Below the pieces are notes generated by a model. That model was not told where the DNA came from, searched no databases, and worked only from the letters and a program-made list of their open reading frames with translations. A stretch of 20,000 nucleotides of DNA, taken from positions 49,346 through 69,345 of the IMG/VR virus record IMGVR_UViG_3300031539_000018, one strand, 5' to 3'. The first letter of the stretch is position 1, and the number at the start of each line of letters is the position of its first letter. This stretch comes from an uncultured virus (IMG/VR IMGVR_UViG_3300031539_000018) (taxonomy: Duplodnaviria; Heunggongvirae; Uroviricota; Caudoviricetes). Both the position numbers and the translations under genes were made by a program. This document shows positions 6,857 through 15,949 of this stretch, in pieces.

Positions 6857-6865
6857 GGAAACGTG

Positions 6866-8062
6866 ATGAAAGAGTACTCAATCTGGCAAGAGCAGACCTT
6901 AGCTGTAATGACGGCTATGCAGGCCAACGTGCCTGCGCTCATCTTAGGGGTGCCCGGCATCGCCAAGACGGCGTTCCTGAAAGCGGCTACGAAGGCCCTG
7001 GGATGGGATTTGTACGTGTTTATGGGCAGTATCCGGCAGCCCTCGGACATCATTGGCTACCTGGCCCCGGACTTGGAGCGCCGGGTGACTTTGGAGCTGC
7101 CCCTGGAGTGGGCGCGTAGCATCAGCGACCGCGCCACCGAGGGTCATGTGACTGTGGTGTTTCTTGAGGAGCTGACTACGGTGTTCCCTGCGATGCAGGC
7201 GGCACAACTCCGGTTCGTGCATGAGCGGTGCGTAGGCGATTGCTACCTTGGTGATAGCACCCGCATTGTGGCGGCTGCGAACCCGCCGGAGATGGCCCCT
7301 GGGGGATTTCAACTGTCACCGCCTATGGCTAACCGGTTGCTGCATCTGGGGTGGCAGGAGGACGCGGCGCATTGGGCCGACAATATGCTGCTAGACTTCC
7401 CGGCCCCGGTGCTGCCTACGTTTGATGCGGCCAAGGCGGCGGAGTCCCGTGAGCGGTGGAAGGGGTTGATTTACGCCTACATCATGGGATACCGTCGGCA
7501 GCACTTGGTGGTCATGCCTGTGGATCGGGAGGGCCGTGTGGATGAGGAGAAGGCGTCTGGGCCGTGGGCCAGTGAGCGGTCCTGGTATGAGTACCTGCTG
7601 CCCTGTTTGTCCTGGCTGGATGCTGTGCGGGGCATCTCTAAGCAACTCTATGAGAGCGTGCGGGAGCGGTTGGCGGTGGGGTCTATTGGTGCAGTGGGTG
7701 CGGAGTTCCTTCTGTGGTCCGATAACCTGGACCTCACCTCGGCGGAGGACATGCTCAAGCAGGGGTCCAAGTACGTGGTGCCGGACCGCCAGGACAGGGC
7801 CTATGCGGAGCTGGCGAACCTGGCGATTTACGTGTCCGGCAAGAAGATCACGCCGAAGATTTGGGTAGCGGCCTGGAATGTATTTGCGGCTGCGGCGGAC
7901 CAGGGCAAGACGGGCACGGCTGCGGCTGCGGCGCGGTCCCTAGCGTCCAAGGCCAGGGCTGACCTACCCCCGGTTTACGAACAGATAGCGCGGTTTCAAC
8001 CTTTGCTGGAGCGTGCGAAGATGATACCGAAACTGGATGATGACGCGGCGATGGAACTGTGA
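6866..8062 (+). CDS. MoxR-type AAA+ ATPase
   Basis: Walker A GVPGIAKT, Walker B VVFLEE, sensor-1 AAANPPE and arginine-finger region LSPPMANRL. Confidence 0.88.
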   Translation: MKEYSIWQEQTLAVMTAMQANVPALILGVPGIAKTAFLKAATKALGWDLYVFMGSIRQPSDIIGYLAPDLERRVTLELPLEWARSISDRATEGHVTVVFLEELTTVFPAMQAAQLRFVHERCVGDCYLGDSTRIVAAANPPEMAPGGFQLSPPMANRLLHLGWQEDAAHWADNMLLDFPAPVLPTFDAAKAAESRERWKGLIYAYIMGYRRQHLVVMPVDREGRVDEEKASGPWASERSWYEYLLPCLSWLDAVRGISKQLYESVRERLAVGSIGAVGAEFLLWSDNLDLTSAEDMLKQGSKYVVPDRQDRAYAELANLAIYVSGKKITPKIWVAAWNVFAAAADQGKTGTAAAAARSLASKARADLPPVYEQIARFQPLLERAKMIPKLDDDAAMEL

Positions 8063-8076
8063 GGAGGTAGGAGAAG

Positions 8077-8955
8077 ATGGGCAAGACGAGGATTGAGTGG
8101 GCTGATGAGAGCTGGAATCCAATCACGGGCTGCACCCATGCGGGTACTCCCGGCTGCGACAACTGCTATGCCCGGCGCATGGCACAGAGACTGGCGGGGC
8201 GGTTCGGGTATCCCGAGAAGCCACATCAGTTCGACGTGACGTTTCACCAGGACAAGCTGGATGAACCGCTGAGTTGGAGGAAGCCGAGAGTGGTGTTCGT
8301 GTGCTCGATGGGGGACCTGTTTCACCAGGATGTGACCTGGGAGCAGAGGGGCGATGTGTGGCAGGCGATGTATGAGGCTCCACAGCATACCTTCTTGGTA
8401 CTGACCAAGCGGCCAGCGGAGATGCGCGATTGGTTCATTGGCTATTGGCAAGAGGCAGTTGCGACCAGCGACGAGCTAATTCTATCCAACGTCTACCTCG
8501 GCGTCTCGGTCGAAACCCAAGACCAGATGTGGCGGGTCGAGGAGCTGGTCAAGATACCGGGCAAGCACTGGGTGAACTTCGGCCCGCTGTTGGGGCCCGT
8601 CACGATCCCCCCTGAGCTACTAGCACGACTTGCTGGCGCAGCCGTGGAGGGCGAATCAGGGCCAGGGGCTAGGCCAATGCACCCCGACTGGGCACGAAAC
8701 ATCAGAGATCAATGCGTAGCAGCAGAGATTCCATTTTCGTTCAAGCAATGGGGGGAGTGGGGGCCAACTTCCTACGGTGGTTCCTATGAGCGCTATCACG
8801 CATTCACAAGACCACTACCGCCGGATCCTGCACGTATGATGGTTGAGGCTCAGGTATACCGTGTTGGAAAGGCCCAGGCAGGCCGACTACTCGACGGGCA
8901 GCTCTGGAATCAGTGGCCGTGGGATGTGATAGGGGACATGGAGCATGGTGAGTGA
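8077..8955 (+). CDS. Phage Gp37/Gp68 (DUF5131) family protein
   Basis: TRIEWADESWNPITGC...GCDNCYA, FVCSMGDLFH, LTKRP, LGVSVE, GESGPGARPMHPDWAR, FKQWGEW and KAQAGRLLDG. Confidence 0.93.
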   Translation: MGKTRIEWADESWNPITGCTHAGTPGCDNCYARRMAQRLAGRFGYPEKPHQFDVTFHQDKLDEPLSWRKPRVVFVCSMGDLFHQDVTWEQRGDVWQAMYEAPQHTFLVLTKRPAEMRDWFIGYWQEAVATSDELILSNVYLGVSVETQDQMWRVEELVKIPGKHWVNFGPLLGPVTIPPELLARLAGAAVEGESGPGARPMHPDWARNIRDQCVAAEIPFSFKQWGEWGPTSYGGSYERYHAFTRPLPPDPARMMVEAQVYRVGKAQAGRLLDGQLWNQWPWDVIGDMEHGE

Positions 8956-9220
8956 GGAAGAAATGAGGAAGATCATGAGGGGTGTGCAAGCCATCGGTCG
9001 AAATAATACGGGCGTGGAAGAGGCCGCTCAGCTCCTCGCCGAAGCGATGAAGGAAGATGTGGTGTACGAAAGCACAGGGGTTGCTGACTATGATGGATGC
9101 TGTGTTCGCCTGGGCTGTGGAACTGAGCTTATCTTAGGTCCTGATGATGAGTGGGACATTCTTGACGGCCGGCAGTACCACGTGACCGTGACGGAAGAAC
9201 CTACCAATGACCAACCGTGA
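8945..9220 (+). CDS. Hypothetical protein
   Basis: Overlaps both neighbours in operon fashion; acidic 91 aa ORF. Confidence 0.6.
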   Translation: MVSEEEMRKIMRGVQAIGRNNTGVEEAAQLLAEAMKEDVVYESTGVADYDGCCVRLGCGTELILGPDDEWDILDGRQYHVTVTEEPTNDQP

Positions 9221-10568
9221 TGCTACTTTGGCGATGGACGCGGCAAGGGTGCGGCTCAACTATCTGCGTGGCTACCTTCGGGCTGTGTTGTGGACTATGC
9301 GCATGGTGCCCACTGGAGAGGTGCCCAGTATGGCTATGTCCAAGGACGCGGTGATCTACTACAACCCGGAGGAGGTAGCCAAGTGGCCCTTGGAGGCCTG
9401 CGTGACGGTCCTGTACCATGAGGTGTGCCACTGGATGCGGCGTCACTATGAGCGCATGGCAGACTTCCCGGACGAACAGTGCGCGCTCATTGCGGCGGAA
9501 TTGGAACTCCAGGGTGACATCGAGGATGAGATCAACGGTGACTCGAATCTGGATTGGCCCCCACAGGGATACATTGCACCGGGCAAGCCGCCTTTCGAGA
9601 GCTTGCTCAAGGGCCTCCTGGCTGAGGAGTATTATCGACTTCTGGAGCGGCAACAGCAGCAATCCGGTGGCGCAGGGGGCCAGCAGCAGGGCAAGGGGCG
9701 GCAACAAGGTCAAGGCCAGGGGCAGAGTCAACAGGGGCAGAGTCAACAGCAAGGTAAGGGCCAAGGCAAGGGCCAGCAAGGTCAAGACCAGCAACCAGGC
9801 CAGGGCCAGGGTTCTGTGTCTGATGGGCACTGGAAGGACTGGGAGCAGCAGGACCATCCGGAGGGCATCACTGAGGCCCAGGGGCGGCTCATTGCCCGCA
9901 AGCTGGCCCAGGACATCCAGGAGGCCGCGGAGCGTGATAAGTCGCAGCGGGGCATCGGCTCAGTACCCGGCTGGATGAAGCGTTGGGCAGAGATGCAGCT
10001 TTACTCCAAGGTGCCCTGGTACAAGGTTCTAGACCGCTGGATACGTCAGTCCATTGGGCACGTCCTGGGGTTCTCAGACTACTCATTCAGGACACCGAAC
10101 CGTAGGGCTGCGTTGAGCGGCCTCATCCTGCCGGGTTTGGTGAAGCCTGTGCCGAGGATCGCTGTGGTTCTGGACACATCAGGGTCCATGTCCGGTCATC
10201 AGGTTGGGTTGGCCCTCACGGAGATTGGCGGCGTGCTCAGGGCTATGGGGATGCTGGAGGGCGTGTGGGTACTGGCTACGGATGCGGAGGCCCATACCTG
10301 CCAGCGTGTGTTCAATCCCCGCCAGGTGGACGTTGTGGGCGGTGGGGGAACCATCCTGGAGTCGGGCATTGCACGAGCCATGAAGCTGCGGCCCCGGCCT
10401 GAGATCGTGGTCGTCATCTCGGACTGCCTGAACTATTGGGATGAGGTCAAGCCTGCCAGGGTGAGCATCGTGATCGTGCGTGTGGGCACGGGCAAGCCGC
10501 CTACGTGGGCCGACAAGGTGATTGACGTGGAGGATGTGGTAGAGGACTGGACGGTGTGGACAAGATGA
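9207..10568 (+). CDS. DUF2201-type metallopeptidase-like plus VWA domain protein (MoxR partner)
   Basis: LYHEVCH (HExxH), Gln/Gly-rich linker, MIDAS motif VVLDTSGSMS, GGGGT and VVISD. Confidence 0.88.
   Translation: MTNRDATLAMDAARVRLNYLRGYLRAVLWTMRMVPTGEVPSMAMSKDAVIYYNPEEVAKWPLEACVTVLYHEVCHWMRRHYERMADFPDEQCALIAAELELQGDIEDEINGDSNLDWPPQGYIAPGKPPFESLLKGLLAEEYYRLLERQQQQSGGAGGQQQGKGRQQGQGQGQSQQGQSQQQGKGQGKGQQGQDQQPGQGQGSVSDGHWKDWEQQDHPEGITEAQGRLIARKLAQDIQEAAERDKSQRGIGSVPGWMKRWAEMQLYSKVPWYKVLDRWIRQSIGHVLGFSDYSFRTPNRRAALSGLILPGLVKPVPRIAVVLDTSGSMSGHQVGLALTEIGGVLRAMGMLEGVWVLATDAEAHTCQRVFNPRQVDVVGGGGTILESGIARAMKLRPRPEIVVVISDCLNYWDEVKPARVSIVIVRVGTGKPPTWADKVIDVEDVVEDWTVWTR
9650..9810 (+). repeat. Low-complexity Gln/Gly-coding tract including a 15-bp tandem duplication
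   Basis: CAGGGGCAGAGTCAA twice at 9717-9746 within the QQQQSGG...GQGQ linker. Confidence 0.8.
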
Positions 10569-12937: not shown

Positions 12938-12966
12938 TTGACAAACCGGAAGGAATCTGCTATACT
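12938..12966 (+). promoter_or_regulatory. sigma70-type promoter upstream of tnpB
   Basis: TTGACA (12938-12943), 17 bp, TATACT (12961-12966). Confidence 0.85.
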
Positions 12967-12972
12967 GATAAT

Positions 12973-13064
12973 GCTACAGGTGCGGCGTGGTTGTTTTGTT
13001 ATAGAAGGGGTCATGCAGGCCACGCGCACCTGTAGCGGGACGCAAGGCAATGTGTGACCCCTTT
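12973..13064 (+). ncRNA. Putative pseudoknotted leader RNA of unknown class
   Basis: 17-bp stem 12973-12990/13020-13036 with one bulge; loop 13004-13017 is complementary to 13051-13064 (14 bp including G-U pairs). Confidence 0.6.
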
Positions 13065-13075
13065 GACATAAGGCG

Positions 13076-14287
13076 ATGATTGTACAGAAGAGCCATAGGA
13101 TACAACTGAGACCCAACAATGAGCACCGAAGCGGTTTCAACCGCTGGGTTGGTGCTTACCGTTGGACTTACAACTGGGCGCTAGAACAGAAGAAGACAGC
13201 CTATGAGCAAGAGGGCAAGTCACTGAGTAAGTACGGTGTGCAGAAACTCTTGACTATTGAGAAACACACGCTGGAAAGGGCGTGGCTCAATGATATCCTG
13301 CGAGACACGCTTGTCAATGCAATATGGAACATGGACAGGGCATACCAGAACTTCTTCCGGCGGGTCAAGAATGGAGAGGCCAAAAAGGGTTTCCCAAAGT
13401 TCAAGTCAAGACGGACGGCGCGGCGCGTTTTCCACGTCACGGCGTACCTCGTGCAATTGAGCGAAGACCGACGGAGCGTCAAGTTGCCTAAACTTGGATG
13501 GGTTAGGATGAGCAAGGCCCTGCGATTTGAGGGCAAGATGGTTGGGACAGTGGCTGTCAGTGAAGAGGCGGGGCGGTGGTATGCATCCTTCGTCGTTGAG
13601 ACTGAGATACCCGATCCTCCGGATCGTAGTGCTGACCCTGTGGTGGGCATCGACGTCGGTATCAAAACGCTAATGACGCTTTCTGATGGGAAGCGATATG
13701 AGAATCCGAAGGCTACCTATGAGCTAGAGAAGCTACTGGCGCGGTCACAGCGCCAACTATCCTGCAAGACTAAGGGGAGTAAGCGGCGGGCTAGGGCAAA
13801 GCTGAGAGTCCAGCGGATACAGAAGCGGATCAAGGATGTGCGGGTAAATGCGGCACATCAAGCCACGGCGGAGGTGACTAGGGACTACGGCCTCGTAGCT
13901 ATGGAGGACTTGAATGTCAAAGGCATGGTCAAGAATCGTCACTTGGCAAAGGCCGTGTCAGACTCCAATTTCAATCGGTTGCGCCAGCAGTTGACGTACA
14001 AGACCGCGTGGAGCGGCAGTAAACTGAGGCTCGTGGACCGTTGGTTCCCGTCCAGCAAGCTGTGCTCTGAGTGCGGTTGCATCAATGATAATCTGACACT
14101 TTCAGATAGGAGGTGGACTTGCGATTGTGGGGCTGTTCATGACAGGGACCTAAACGCTGCCCAGAATATTCTAGCGGCGGCGCTAAAGTTGGCCGACGAA
14201 TCGGCGGTCACTGGGCGTGGAGGGATAGGGGCCTCAAGTCCTCCCGATGAAGCGTCAAGCGGGCAGCAGGAGGTGATAGATGCATAA
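13076..14287 (+). CDS. tnpB: RNA-guided endonuclease TnpB (IS200/IS605/IS607 superfamily), catalytic motifs intact, no adjacent TnpA
   Basis: N-terminal HRIQLRPN...YRWTYNWAL, GFPKFKSR, LPKLGWVR; RuvC-I VGIDVGIK, RuvC-II AMEDLNV, Zn finger CSECG...CDCG, RuvC-III HDRDLNAAQNI. Confidence 0.95.
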   Translation: MIVQKSHRIQLRPNNEHRSGFNRWVGAYRWTYNWALEQKKTAYEQEGKSLSKYGVQKLLTIEKHTLERAWLNDILRDTLVNAIWNMDRAYQNFFRRVKNGEAKKGFPKFKSRRTARRVFHVTAYLVQLSEDRRSVKLPKLGWVRMSKALRFEGKMVGTVAVSEEAGRWYASFVVETEIPDPPDRSADPVVGIDVGIKTLMTLSDGKRYENPKATYELEKLLARSQRQLSCKTKGSKRRARAKLRVQRIQKRIKDVRVNAAHQATAEVTRDYGLVAMEDLNVKGMVKNRHLAKAVSDSNFNRLRQQLTYKTAWSGSKLRLVDRWFPSSKLCSECGCINDNLTLSDRRWTCDCGAVHDRDLNAAQNILAAALKLADESAVTGRGGIGASSPPDEASSGQQEVIDA

Positions 14288-14322
14288 GACCCGCAACCCC
14301 GAATTGACGGGGTCCTCATTCG
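14190..14322 (+). ncRNA. Putative omegaRNA/reRNA-like scaffold overlapping the tnpB 3' end
   Basis: Hairpin GCCGA-CGAA-TCGGC, a GGGCGTGGAG...CTCCCGATGAAGCGTC segment resembling TnpB right-end RNAs, and hairpin ACCCCG-AATTGA-CGGGGT. Boundaries are inferred. Confidence 0.5.
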
Positions 14323-14346
14323 CGTGGGCAATGGCTATTGTGAAGG

Positions 14347-14624
14347 GTGCACCCCATGCGCATGTGGGGGATTCGCGCAGATGCGGGTCTGAAACGACGA
14401 CCCCAAACGTGCACCCCATGCGCATGTGGGGGATTCGTACGGCAAGTATTGCCAGAAGCCGCAGAAACCCGTGCACCCCATGCGCATGTGGGGGATTCGT
14501 TGGCCCTGTGCTTGCGGCTGCGCAGGACGAAGTGCACCCCATGCGCATGTGGGGGATTCGTCAAATGACAAGCGATTGCACGCCAGCATACGTGTACCCC
14601 ATGCGTATGTGAGGGGGGGATTCG
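14347..14624 (+). CRISPR. Mini CRISPR-like array: four identical 29-bp repeats, one degenerate terminal repeat, four spacers
   Basis: GTGCACCCCATGCGCATGTGGGGGATTCG at 14347, 14409, 14471 and 14532; degenerate GTGTACCCCATGCGTATGTGAGGGGGGGATTCG at 14592-14624; unique spacers of 33, 33, 32 and 31 bp. The CCCC...GGGG stem recalls type I-E repeats. Confidence 0.93.
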
Positions 14625-14635
14625 GTGGAGACTAA

Positions 14636-15949
14636 ATGAGCGAACCCTATGATGTGGACGTAGAGAGGTCGGCCCTCGGCAGCTTGCTCCTGGACCCCGC
14701 ACTCTTGGCTGAGGCTGAGGCTGTGTTGCTCCCAGAGGACTTCTACCGGGAGGCGCACAGCACAGTCTACGGGGCCATGCTGGAGCTGTGGCGCTCAGGT
14801 TCGGCGCTGGATTACACGCTGCTATGCCGGGCCTTGGAGGACCGCGGACACTTGGAGGCTGTGGGCGGGACGGCATACGTGGCTTCGCTCATTGAGGCCA
14901 CACCGACCAGTGCTCATTTCGCGTCCTATGCCCGCGAGGTTCTGGCCCTGGCGAATCGGCGCCGCTTGATAGTGGCGGGTATTGAGTTGCAGAACATGGC
15001 CTGCGAGGGCGGCTACGGTGTGCCGGAACTCCTGGAGCAGGCTCAGGTCTTGCTCAATCAGGTTTCTGTGAGGGCCGATTTGCAAGGAGCGGTAGTGCCT
15101 TTCGAGAGTGCTTTGGAGGCCTACTGGAGTGCATTGGCGATGGAGCTGTCGGGCGCGGTGACGCGGATTCCCTTTGGGTTCCGAGACCTGGACTCATTGG
15201 TTGGGGGATTGAAGCCGGGGGACCTGTGCTATATCGGGGGCCGGCCAAGTATGGGCAAAACTACTTTGTGCCTGCAAGCGGCCCTGAACCTGGCTAAGTT
15301 GGGCGTGGGTCCGACGGTGGTGTTCTCGGTGGAGAGCACGGAACCGGAGTTGGCAGGTCGCATCCTTGGCTATGCCACTGGGGTGACCTCGGACGCCATG
15401 CGGAAGCGCACGGTGGATGTAGAGGCTATGTCCTGGGTAGGGCAGGTTGCGTCTGTGCTGGAGATCCCCGTGTTGCTGCGGGAGGATTACGACCTCTCAC
15501 CGGCGGGGATTGATGCGGCGCTCACGTCCATGCCCCAGCCTCCCCGGCTGGTGGTGGTGGACCACGTGCACCGTATGGAGGGGGGCCGCAGGTTCAGGGA
15601 CCGTCGGGAGGAGGTGACGTACATCTCGCGGCGGTTAAAGTCCCTGGCGCAGAAGCATTCGGTCCCGGTGGTGGCGGTATGCACCCTGAGCCGGATGGTG
15701 GAGAACCGCAAGCCACCGAGGCCCATGCTGGCGGATTTGAAGGAATCGGGAGACCTGGAGCATGATGCGGACGTGGTGATTATGCTGTACTGGGCTGGTC
15801 ACTACGATTCGGAAAGCCCCAGGCAGTTTGTGACCGAGGCCATTGTGGCCAAGCACCGGGACGGTCCCACGGGCACGGCGTATCTTCGGCGCGGGGGCCA
15901 GGGGCAATTGAGCGACCTGGTGTGTAAGAATGATTTGATGATGCTTTAA
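14636..15949 (+). CDS. dnaB: Replicative DNA helicase, DnaB family
   Basis: N-terminal ERSALGSLL...PEDFYREAH; Walker A GGRPSMGKTT; VVVDHV; LADLKESGDLEHDADVV; IVAKHRDGPTG. Confidence 0.97.
   Translation: MSEPYDVDVERSALGSLLLDPALLAEAEAVLLPEDFYREAHSTVYGAMLELWRSGSALDYTLLCRALEDRGHLEAVGGTAYVASLIEATPTSAHFASYAREVLALANRRRLIVAGIELQNMACEGGYGVPELLEQAQVLLNQVSVRADLQGAVVPFESALEAYWSALAMELSGAVTRIPFGFRDLDSLVGGLKPGDLCYIGGRPSMGKTTLCLQAALNLAKLGVGPTVVFSVESTEPELAGRILGYATGVTSDAMRKRTVDVEAMSWVGQVASVLEIPVLLREDYDLSPAGIDAALTSMPQPPRLVVVDHVHRMEGGRRFRDRREEVTYISRRLKSLAQKHSVPVVAVCTLSRMVENRKPPRPMLADLKESGDLEHDADVVIMLYWAGHYDSESPRQFVTEAIVAKHRDGPTGTAYLRRGGQGQLSDLVCKNDLMML

Follow-up and report, generated by a model that had tools for sequence, protein, structure and literature searches.

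Can a CRISPR (clustered regularly interspaced short palindromic repeats) array that follows a transposon-type nuclease gene in a phage genome provide that nuclease with its guides? The question is raised by a locus in the final 20 kb of a 69,345-bp virus record from soil (IMG/VR IMGVR_UViG_3300031539_000018; completeness rating, 93%). We refer to this stretch of 20,000 nt as the window; all coordinates are positions within it, and all features of the module described here lie on its + strand. The module comprises tnpB, the predicted scaffold of its omegaRNA and an array of five repeats and four spacers. Its anatomy, the conserved linkage of its parts, the conservation and covariation of the pairing partners, the turnover of the spacers and the presence of matching targets could all be observed directly. 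The reading that we consider best supported is a phage-borne TnpB–CRISPR hybrid with a split guide resembling those of TranC and type V-U systems, in which the repeat would contribute the hairpin, the pseudoknot strand and the spacer. We give this reading a probability of roughly 0.55 and place it ahead of use of the array by a host Cascade complex.

The nuclease gene, tnpB (13076–14287, stop codon at 14285–14287), encodes a protein of 403 residues with the Pfam domains HTH_OrfB_IS605, OrfB_IS605 and Cas12f1-like_TNB. The protein matched the NCBIfam model guided_TnpB with 294.7 bits, against a cut-off of 100, which places it in that family; the narrower IS200_TnpB model gave 320 bits, under its cut-off of 425. 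Among solved structures, its closest natural relative was ISDra2 TnpB (E = 9e-72 over residues 1–383), an RNA-guided nuclease that it resembles in family and in size (PDB 8H1J, 8EXA, 8BF8; PMC10097598). A match to LaTranC was confined to the RuvC part, in the C-terminal third (E = 2e-25 to 3e-25). Curated Cas12 models scored below their cut-offs (C2c8, 87 bits against 350; Cas12f2, 50 bits against 450), and the protein was also matched by the PADLOC models for Cas12f (E = 3e-78) and Cas12u4 (E = 3e-76), which carry no cut-offs. Protein-guided scans recovered relatives from viral contigs (136) and from metagenome contigs (543), and the best 80 of each set were retained. The RuvC triad (D193, E277 and D358) and the zinc-finger cysteine pairs were present in all nine members of the clade to which the window's TnpB belongs. 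The ratio of nonsynonymous to synonymous substitution rates (dN/dS) was 0.07–0.17; between subclades dS exceeded 1, so that synonymous sites are saturated. These data indicate that tnpB is under purifying selection and predict a nuclease-competent protein with an intact RuvC site.

The scaffold was modelled with RNAalifold on an alignment of nine relatives, and the consensus structure contained compensatory changes in 11 of 41 predicted pairs. Stem 1 (hairpin A; 14190–14210) is a covarying stem with arms at 14190–14195 and 14205–14210 and a 9-nt loop at 14196–14204. An earlier description of this DNA, made from its sequence and referred to here as the original prediction, had placed six bases of interest, 14197–14202, in and beside the loop of a short inner hairpin. 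The six bases do lie in a loop; however, the covarying register is that of the outer arms, and the 9-nt loop holds all six. Stem 2 (14214–14256), which also showed compensatory changes in the RNAalifold consensus, pairs 14214–14218 with 14252–14256 and encloses an inner hairpin. The 3′ part of the scaffold (14249–14315) contains a stem (14259–14263 with 14290–14294) and a hairpin resembling stem 4 (14296–14301 with 14308–14313), the latter kept in all clade members. The same interval matched Rfam RF03015, the Transposase-2 RNA, over the full model with 25.3 bits (gathering threshold, 42.7; E = 0.003–0.02). At gathering thresholds, no Rfam family matched in the window; by E-value, this sub-threshold match to Transposase-2 was the only one, and no CRISPR repeat family appeared. 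Because the 3′ half matches Transposase-2 over its full model and the structure is conserved, an end of the element at 14258, which the original prediction had raised as a possibility, was rejected. The omegaRNA scaffold thus appears to overlap the 3′ end of tnpB and to continue past the stop codon through the hairpin at 14296–14313.

By homology, stem 1 of the phage scaffold corresponds to stem 1 of the ISDra2 omegaRNA, whose loop forms a pseudoknot. The structural report on the ISDra2 complex describes a long stem-1 loop in which five bases pair with the nucleotides directly preceding the guide (−6 to −2), a final stem, capped by a tetraloop, that joins the tracr-like and crRNA-like halves of the RNA, and a dependence of TnpB on the whole scaffold (PMC10097598). 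As described there, the pseudoknot topology is the one that the original prediction had assumed. The two RNAs follow the same plan: pairing of the stem-1 loop just before the guide, a stem 2 that encloses stem 3, and a last hairpin preceding the pseudoknot strand. They differ in that stem 2 and the last hairpin are separated by an additional stem in the phage scaffold. The loci also differ: that of the phage is without tnpA or a recognisable right end, and its guides are proposed to come from the array.

Downstream of the scaffold, the array (14347–14624) consists of four identical 29-nt repeats (14347–14375, 14409–14437, 14471–14499 and 14532–14560), a degenerate repeat of 33 nt (14592–14624) and four spacers, at 14376–14408 (33 nt), 14438–14470 (33 nt), 14500–14531 (32 nt) and 14561–14591 (31 nt). 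Each repeat folds into a hairpin with a free 3′ tail. The regular repeats, together with distinct spacers that differ between close relatives, identify it as a CRISPR array. Its 3′ end meets the ribosome-binding site of dnaB. The degenerate fifth repeat (region 14592–14650) keeps an intact six-base tail, directly followed by that site and the start codon; a read-through transcript of the array would continue into dnaB, and an extraneous guide from this last repeat would match the start of the phage's own dnaB. No terminator-like site was found between tnpB and the downstream elements.

Between scaffold and array lie 24 nt (14323–14346) that the original prediction had regarded as unique sequence and as a possible native guide. 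Neither view held: the last nine of these bases (14338–14346) did not vary among the clade's six array-bearing lineages, even though every spacer differs among them, and a lineage with a shorter stretch (L096) has the same end. Because this conserved end abuts repeat 1 while the spacers are all different, 14323–14346 looks like the leader of the array and not like a guide.

One line of evidence that connects the array to the scaffold is a short complementarity. As predicted originally, bases 14197–14202 in the stem-1 loop exactly match, as reverse complement, the six bases with which the repeat ends, and this holds for all five repeats. The six-base complement occurs once on the + strand in 13076–14346, where 0.31 occurrences are expected by chance, and the duplex has a predicted free energy of −7.2 kcal/mol. 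In a 403-codon alignment of nine genes, only two invariant runs of at least three codons were found: codons 374–377 (14195–14206), which form the stem-1 loop, and codons 381–383, which lie in stem 2. In tnpB, no nucleotide stretch is more conserved than the loop. On the other side of the proposed duplex, the repeat tail is invariant in the clade while the repeat hairpin varies. By eye, five of the six array-bearing lineages have no stretch complementary to the loop between the last hairpin and the first repeat. With the complementary tail lost in cis from these relatives, the loop is left with the repeat tail as its sole conserved partner in the locus.

The scaffold's own 3′ end was claimed in the original prediction to mirror the repeat, and this claim fared less well. 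The positions assigned to the stop codon, the segment 14293–14322, the 24 nt that follow and repeat 1 were all correct, and the hairpin within the segment is kept in relatives. The five-base end (14318–14322), by contrast, occurs only in the window and in copies that are 100% identical; it is absent from L007/L008/L091, L095, L096, L098 and L099, and was rejected as a conserved end of the scaffold. Overall likeness between segment and repeat is weak: their global alignment scored 2 (P = 0.011 against shuffles), and 1.1% of 34,477 sampled 32-nt phage windows scored as well. Bases 14317–14322 may nevertheless be a relic of the scaffold's own pseudoknot strand, in that five of the six can pair with the stem-1 loop; they are not conserved among array-bearing relatives. 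In the array-less relative L093, six consecutive bases in a comparable position can form pairs with the loop, one of them G–U (by eye, unscored). The pairings of L100, L135, L121 and L110, like that of L093, were read by eye.

The original prediction had proposed a search for covariation between the loop and the TTCG end, and the outcome depended on the relatives considered. Ten array-less relatives with one-piece omegaRNAs were aligned by reference; 86% of the cells in the helix between loop and tail were paired, with changes on both sides in three of the five pairs. The covariation score, computed for this helix and four pairs of stem 1, was 0.303 against 0.103 in shuffles, a value reached by none of 500. 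When the partner was slid by one to three columns, pairing fell to 28–57% of cells. Among array-bearing relatives, L013 is independent of the window's clade; both its loop and its repeat tail have changed, and four to five pairs can still form. When the comparison was limited to the loop in nine array systems, the pairs formed by each system's own loop and tail summed to 34, compared with an average of 25.6 after permutation (P = 0.003). In the window's own clade, both strands are invariant and no covariation was seen. Overall, the complementarity of loop and repeat is real and above chance once its place is fixed by homology.

The array and tnpB are linked in relatives as well. All four viral contigs that hold the window's repeat have it adjoining this tnpB; the four loci are 97–100% identical, and two of them carry entirely different spacers. 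Four metagenome relatives (L095, L096, L098 and L099; 69–82% identity) have the same scaffold, the same leader end and other spacers, and their repeats share a ten-base 3′ end while differing in their hairpins. Only one member of the clade with 3′ flank lacks an array (L093; 77% identity). In a second TnpB clade, about 40% identical to the first, related repeats of 28–30 nt occupy the same place in nine of ten members, and L013 represents a third, separate case. The layout of gene, scaffold and array with different spacers is thus found in two TnpB clades (69–100% and about 40% identical) and in one further relative.

The same linkage was seen across the wider set. A 3′ flank of 350 nt or more was available for 133 TnpB loci; 16 of these (13 of them non-redundant) have an array on the same strand that starts 48–214 nt past the last aligned residue, and three additional loci (L095, L114 and L117) also bear arrays. 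The other ~740 kb of these loci contained only two CRISPR-like arrays, one in L009, after another omegaRNA, and one in L151, which is I-F-like. On a tree built with FastTree, the arrays fall into two well-supported clades plus L013; six label changes were required, against 13.6 in shuffles, and none of 500 shuffles was as low. According to a motif scan for the related scaffold, arrays follow 13 of 81 loci, including other repeat families of 36–37 nt. Because arrays recur after tnpB in both clades and almost nowhere else in the flanks, we conclude from these comparisons that the linkage of tnpB and array is old, clade-wide and specific to this position. The split arrangement of tracr-like and crRNA-like parts that the original prediction suggested fits this linkage of gene, scaffold and array, as it fits the extreme conservation of the loop.

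Several of the loci have further features. A different family of palindromic repeats, of ~36 nt, lies ~80 nt past the scaffold motif in several viral contigs (L198, L203, L204, L231, L232, L245, L247 and L249); its spacers are short and irregular (periods of 52–72), and it directly follows the related omegaRNA scaffold. In L221, repeats of ~37 nt are followed by a second tnpB. L009 contains, at 2740–2990, a second omegaRNA scaffold with three type I-E-like repeats just upstream of its main tnpB, so that two TnpB modules stand in tandem. The metagenome contig L151 carries, at 21–1130, two type I-F-like mini-arrays of 28-nt repeats on the opposite strand, 1–2 kb upstream of TnpB, an example of arrays that are not tied to an omegaRNA. 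Finally, one viral contig of 143 kb carries the module twice, as L006 and L007 (100% and 98% identical); the copies lie ~74 kb apart and differ in their arrays, and the contig has the look of two related phage genomes that were fused during assembly.

Spacers turn over between phages whose tnpB genes are 97–100% identical. When four soil DNA runs were mapped on the locus, a large number of further spacers were seen next to this repeat. In these four runs, contigs with non-repeat DNA on both sides, and hence not arrays, carry the sequences of spacer 1 and spacer 3. Read depth over the bins of these two spacers was ~370 and ~780, respectively, as compared to ~95 over tnpB. In the runs X1–X4, the match to the non-array contigs breaks off where the spacer borders the repeat (14376–14410 and 14501–14531); the match begins at the first base of spacer 1 and at the second base of spacer 3. 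This stop might reflect escape changes on the side of the transposon-associated motif (TAM), or alignment clipping only. No credible target was found among 50,697 INPHARED phage records, which gave seven weak matches (E = 2–8), and exact scans of viral contigs for spacers 1 and 3 returned the arrays themselves only. In a local BLAST search of 35 spacers, one had a non-self match: spacer 2 of L013 (4347–4378), nearly the whole of which matches L013 2759–2784 in 25 of 26 bases, with one indel. The matched segment is an intergenic region of L013 itself, ~220 nt upstream of its tnpB, which suggests that close relatives are targeted beside the insertion site of the cassette.

Because every repeat end fits a strongly conserved scaffold loop, the array probably supplies the guides of TnpB. 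In the mechanism that we propose, the greater part of the omegaRNA scaffold, whose sequence spans the 3′ end of tnpB and the stretch immediately behind it, would be retained by TnpB as a tracr-like RNA, and the array would be read from the same strand as the gene. The repeat hairpin would stand in for omegaRNA stem 4, and the six-base tail of the repeat would pair with the stem-1 loop at 14197–14202, rebuilding the pre-guide pseudoknot as in ISDra2. The spacer would then serve as the guide, directing the nuclease to other DNA elements of the same community. In this model, CRISPR RNA (crRNA) would be loaded on TnpB and its targets would be cleaved. As for who inserts new spacers, the most likely source is a type I-E adaptation module of the host, because the phage has none.

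A number of results weigh against this mechanism. The only joint between RNAs that was detected is the six base pairs of loop and tail: a longer anti-repeat was absent from all 14 systems tested (z = −1.96 to +1.06), 6.5–88% of shuffles folding at least as well. When the repeat tail was allowed to pair anywhere in a 49-nt scaffold segment, its fit was not significant (P = 0.21 and 0.29). The significant signal obtained with the loop only is carried by about half of the nine systems, a good fit is seen in only about three of nine systems of the second clade, and the type I-E-like systems L205, L234 and L235 show none by eye. In the window's own clade, the invariance of both partners amounts to co-conservation. 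The helix of the array-less relatives was defined on the same sequences on which it was scored, which weakens the controls. The 5′ flanks of the two protospacers share no motif, so that neither a TAM nor a protospacer-adjacent motif (PAM) is defined, and a search for RNA runs that contain the locus returned none. In addition, Cas12r is described as working without tracrRNA (trans-activating CRISPR RNA), so a scaffold need not be required (bioRxiv 10.64898/2026.04.20.719267).

Among the alternatives, the one that survives best, unlikely as we consider it, is that the array is an orphan type I-E mini-array of the phage, processed by host Cas6e and used by host Cascade–Cas3 against rivals, with TnpB a mere neighbour whose transcript or 3′ region would act as promoter and leader. 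The repeat does have the type I-E design: its length of 29 nt, its period of 60–62 nt, its hairpin and the leader on its 5′ side match the geometry and orientation of the E. coli K-12 type I-E array, and 18 of its 29 bases are identical to those of the E. coli K-12 repeat (P = 0.007). It shares 22 of 29 with the repeat of the second TnpB clade. Moreover, phage mini-arrays untied to tnpB exist, as in L151, and no cas genes for adaptation or interference were found in the phage. A Pfam scan of 60 of the 90 greedy open reading frames (ORFs) of at least 60 residues in the record detected neither cas genes nor a transposase, and a six-frame search returned no Cas1, Cas6e or type I-E Cas2, with limited sensitivity, the Cas6e and Cas2 controls being positive in Thermus only. 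However, an orphan array does not explain why arrays occupy the same-strand position right after the omegaRNA through two deep TnpB clades, nor why, in lineages without a partner in cis, no part of the gene is better conserved than the loop to which the repeat tail fits. One genome for each of 185,579 species yielded no array with this repeat, which is weak evidence against the orphan reading, as the pattern demanded exact repeat ends. Two single, non-array matches in these genomes were examined as a host signal and judged to be chance.

It is improbable that repeat–spacer RNAs guide TnpB by themselves, in the manner of Cas12r, the old scaffold being no longer involved. Cas12r, as described, shares this array geometry and dispenses with a tracrRNA, but the phage has kept its scaffold, complete with compensatory changes and the two most conserved nucleotide runs of tnpB, and its protein is ISDra2-sized, without added domains, whereas ISDra2 TnpB is reported to need the whole scaffold (PMC10097598). 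We also give little credence to a one-piece omegaRNA with a fixed guide from ~14323, in which the array would be a chance passenger and the six-base match a product of chance and of conservation of a pseudoknot in cis: the matches are short, 14317–14322 can still form five pairs with the loop in the window and part of 14323–14346 is conserved, but the complement in cis is lost in five of six array-bearing lineages while the loop is invariant, what is conserved of the 24 nt adjoins repeat 1, as in a leader, and the spacers turn over and match co-occurring DNA.

The split-guide reading can be set beside systems already described. TranC effectors (Jin et al., Cell 2025, as cited in bioRxiv 10.64898/2026.03.27.714800, PMC13565253 and PMC13639567) are derived from TnpB and work with a right-end RNA that is split; one of them, CauTranC9, is TnpB-sized and comes from a Caudoviricetes genome (bioRxiv 10.64898/2026.03.27.714800). 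According to these descriptions, TranC and the phage locus share a TnpB-derived effector, a downstream array with conserved linkage to it and the lack of other cas genes, as well as occurrence in phage, spacers aimed at other elements and, as proposed for the phage locus, an ancestral right-end RNA split into scaffold and repeat–spacer parts. The phage protein, however, is much closer to ISDra2 TnpB, its match to LaTranC being C-terminal only, and its repeats of 29 nt are shorter than the 32–38 bp reported for TranC. To judge from the published description, the phage locus is also set apart in that the analysis detected no repeat–antirepeat duplex in it, but only the six-base pseudoknot strand.

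Cas12r, reported from Thermus Lalka phages, has 29-bp type I-E-like repeats, spacers of 31–33 nt and an ARG PAM, with no adaptation genes and no tracrRNA; adaptation by the host type I-E system was proposed, and the spacers target other mobile elements (bioRxiv 10.64898/2026.04.20.719267). As reported, it resembles the locus studied here in being phage-borne, in its 29-nt type I-E-like repeats and similar spacer length, in the absence of adaptation genes and in spacers against other elements. In both, the guide would consist of the 3′ part of the repeat followed by the spacer, an order that is proposed for the phage locus. The differences are that Cas12r, by its description, has 564 residues, belongs to another, thermophile branch of TnpB and uses crRNA alone, whereas the phage TnpB has 403 residues and a full scaffold that is retained and conserved.

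Type V-U* comprises forty candidate branches with downstream arrays, for which an origin by duplication of an omegaRNA segment or by insertion beside an existing array was proposed (Altae-Tran et al. 2023, PMC10691335). These branches, V-U6 to V-U45, were compared by description only; they share TnpB-like proteins, a conserved downstream array and no other cas genes. Intermediates between transposon and CRISPR system have therefore already been described, and the phage locus looks like a new variety. We regard it as distinct because the protein is an unenlarged ISDra2-like TnpB, the whole scaffold is retained and conserved, and the sole joint detected between RNAs is the six-base pseudoknot strand of a type I-E-like repeat.

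The surroundings of the module are those of a phage genome. Pfam identified a large terminase, a siphovirus tail protein, glycosyltransferases, methylases and DnaB. The locus does not qualify as an IS200/IS605 transposon: it is present as a single copy, a six-frame search of the 69-kb record found no Y1_Tnp (TnpA), and no transposon right end was recognised at tnpB. A left boundary is visible by comparison. From 12938 on, the sequence is common to L007, L097, L101 and L092; the DNA further upstream is unrelated among them, and the left edge of the module is therefore sharp in at least four contexts. This edge coincides with a strong sigma-70-like promoter before tnpB (12938–12966; 11 of 12 consensus positions, 17-nt spacer). 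Between promoter and start codon, the tnpB 5′ leader contains a long imperfect hairpin (12974–13035, arms at 12974–12990 and 13020–13035) that is conserved in L007, L097 and L101 and whose pairing survives changes in both arms in L092. It is either a relic of the transposon left end or an RNA element. Farther upstream, at 6863–10568, genes for an AAA_5-like ATPase, a DUF5131 protein and a DUF2201 metallopeptidase/VWA-like protein are grouped.

The sequences support capture of an existing array and duplication of the last omegaRNA hairpin about equally as the origin of the repeats. Tentatively, we propose that an unenlarged ISDra2-like TnpB may have taken over an array of type I-E design that is refilled by host enzymes, with the loop and the tail fixed as matched six-base strands and the guide held by one short pseudoknot without a repeat–antirepeat duplex. 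The self-like spacer of L013 hints that such a cassette may also pass between related phages, by cleaving rivals close to the site where it is itself inserted. If this scenario is true, the locus would represent the smallest step yet seen from a transposon RNA to a CRISPR guide, and capture of an array, rather than duplication of an omegaRNA segment, would be a route to type V systems.

The locus thus bears on how type V arrays originated, whether through duplication of omegaRNA or through capture of existing arrays, and its 403-residue protein and defined six-base interaction make the idea directly testable. It also contributes to a view of phages as arming their nucleases against rival elements by means of the host's adaptation enzymes. 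More generally, it may show a minimal route from a transposon nuclease to an adaptive, reprogrammable weapon, one in which the nuclease would keep its scaffold RNA and rely on a borrowed array for nothing more than a last hairpin, a pseudoknot strand and a guide.

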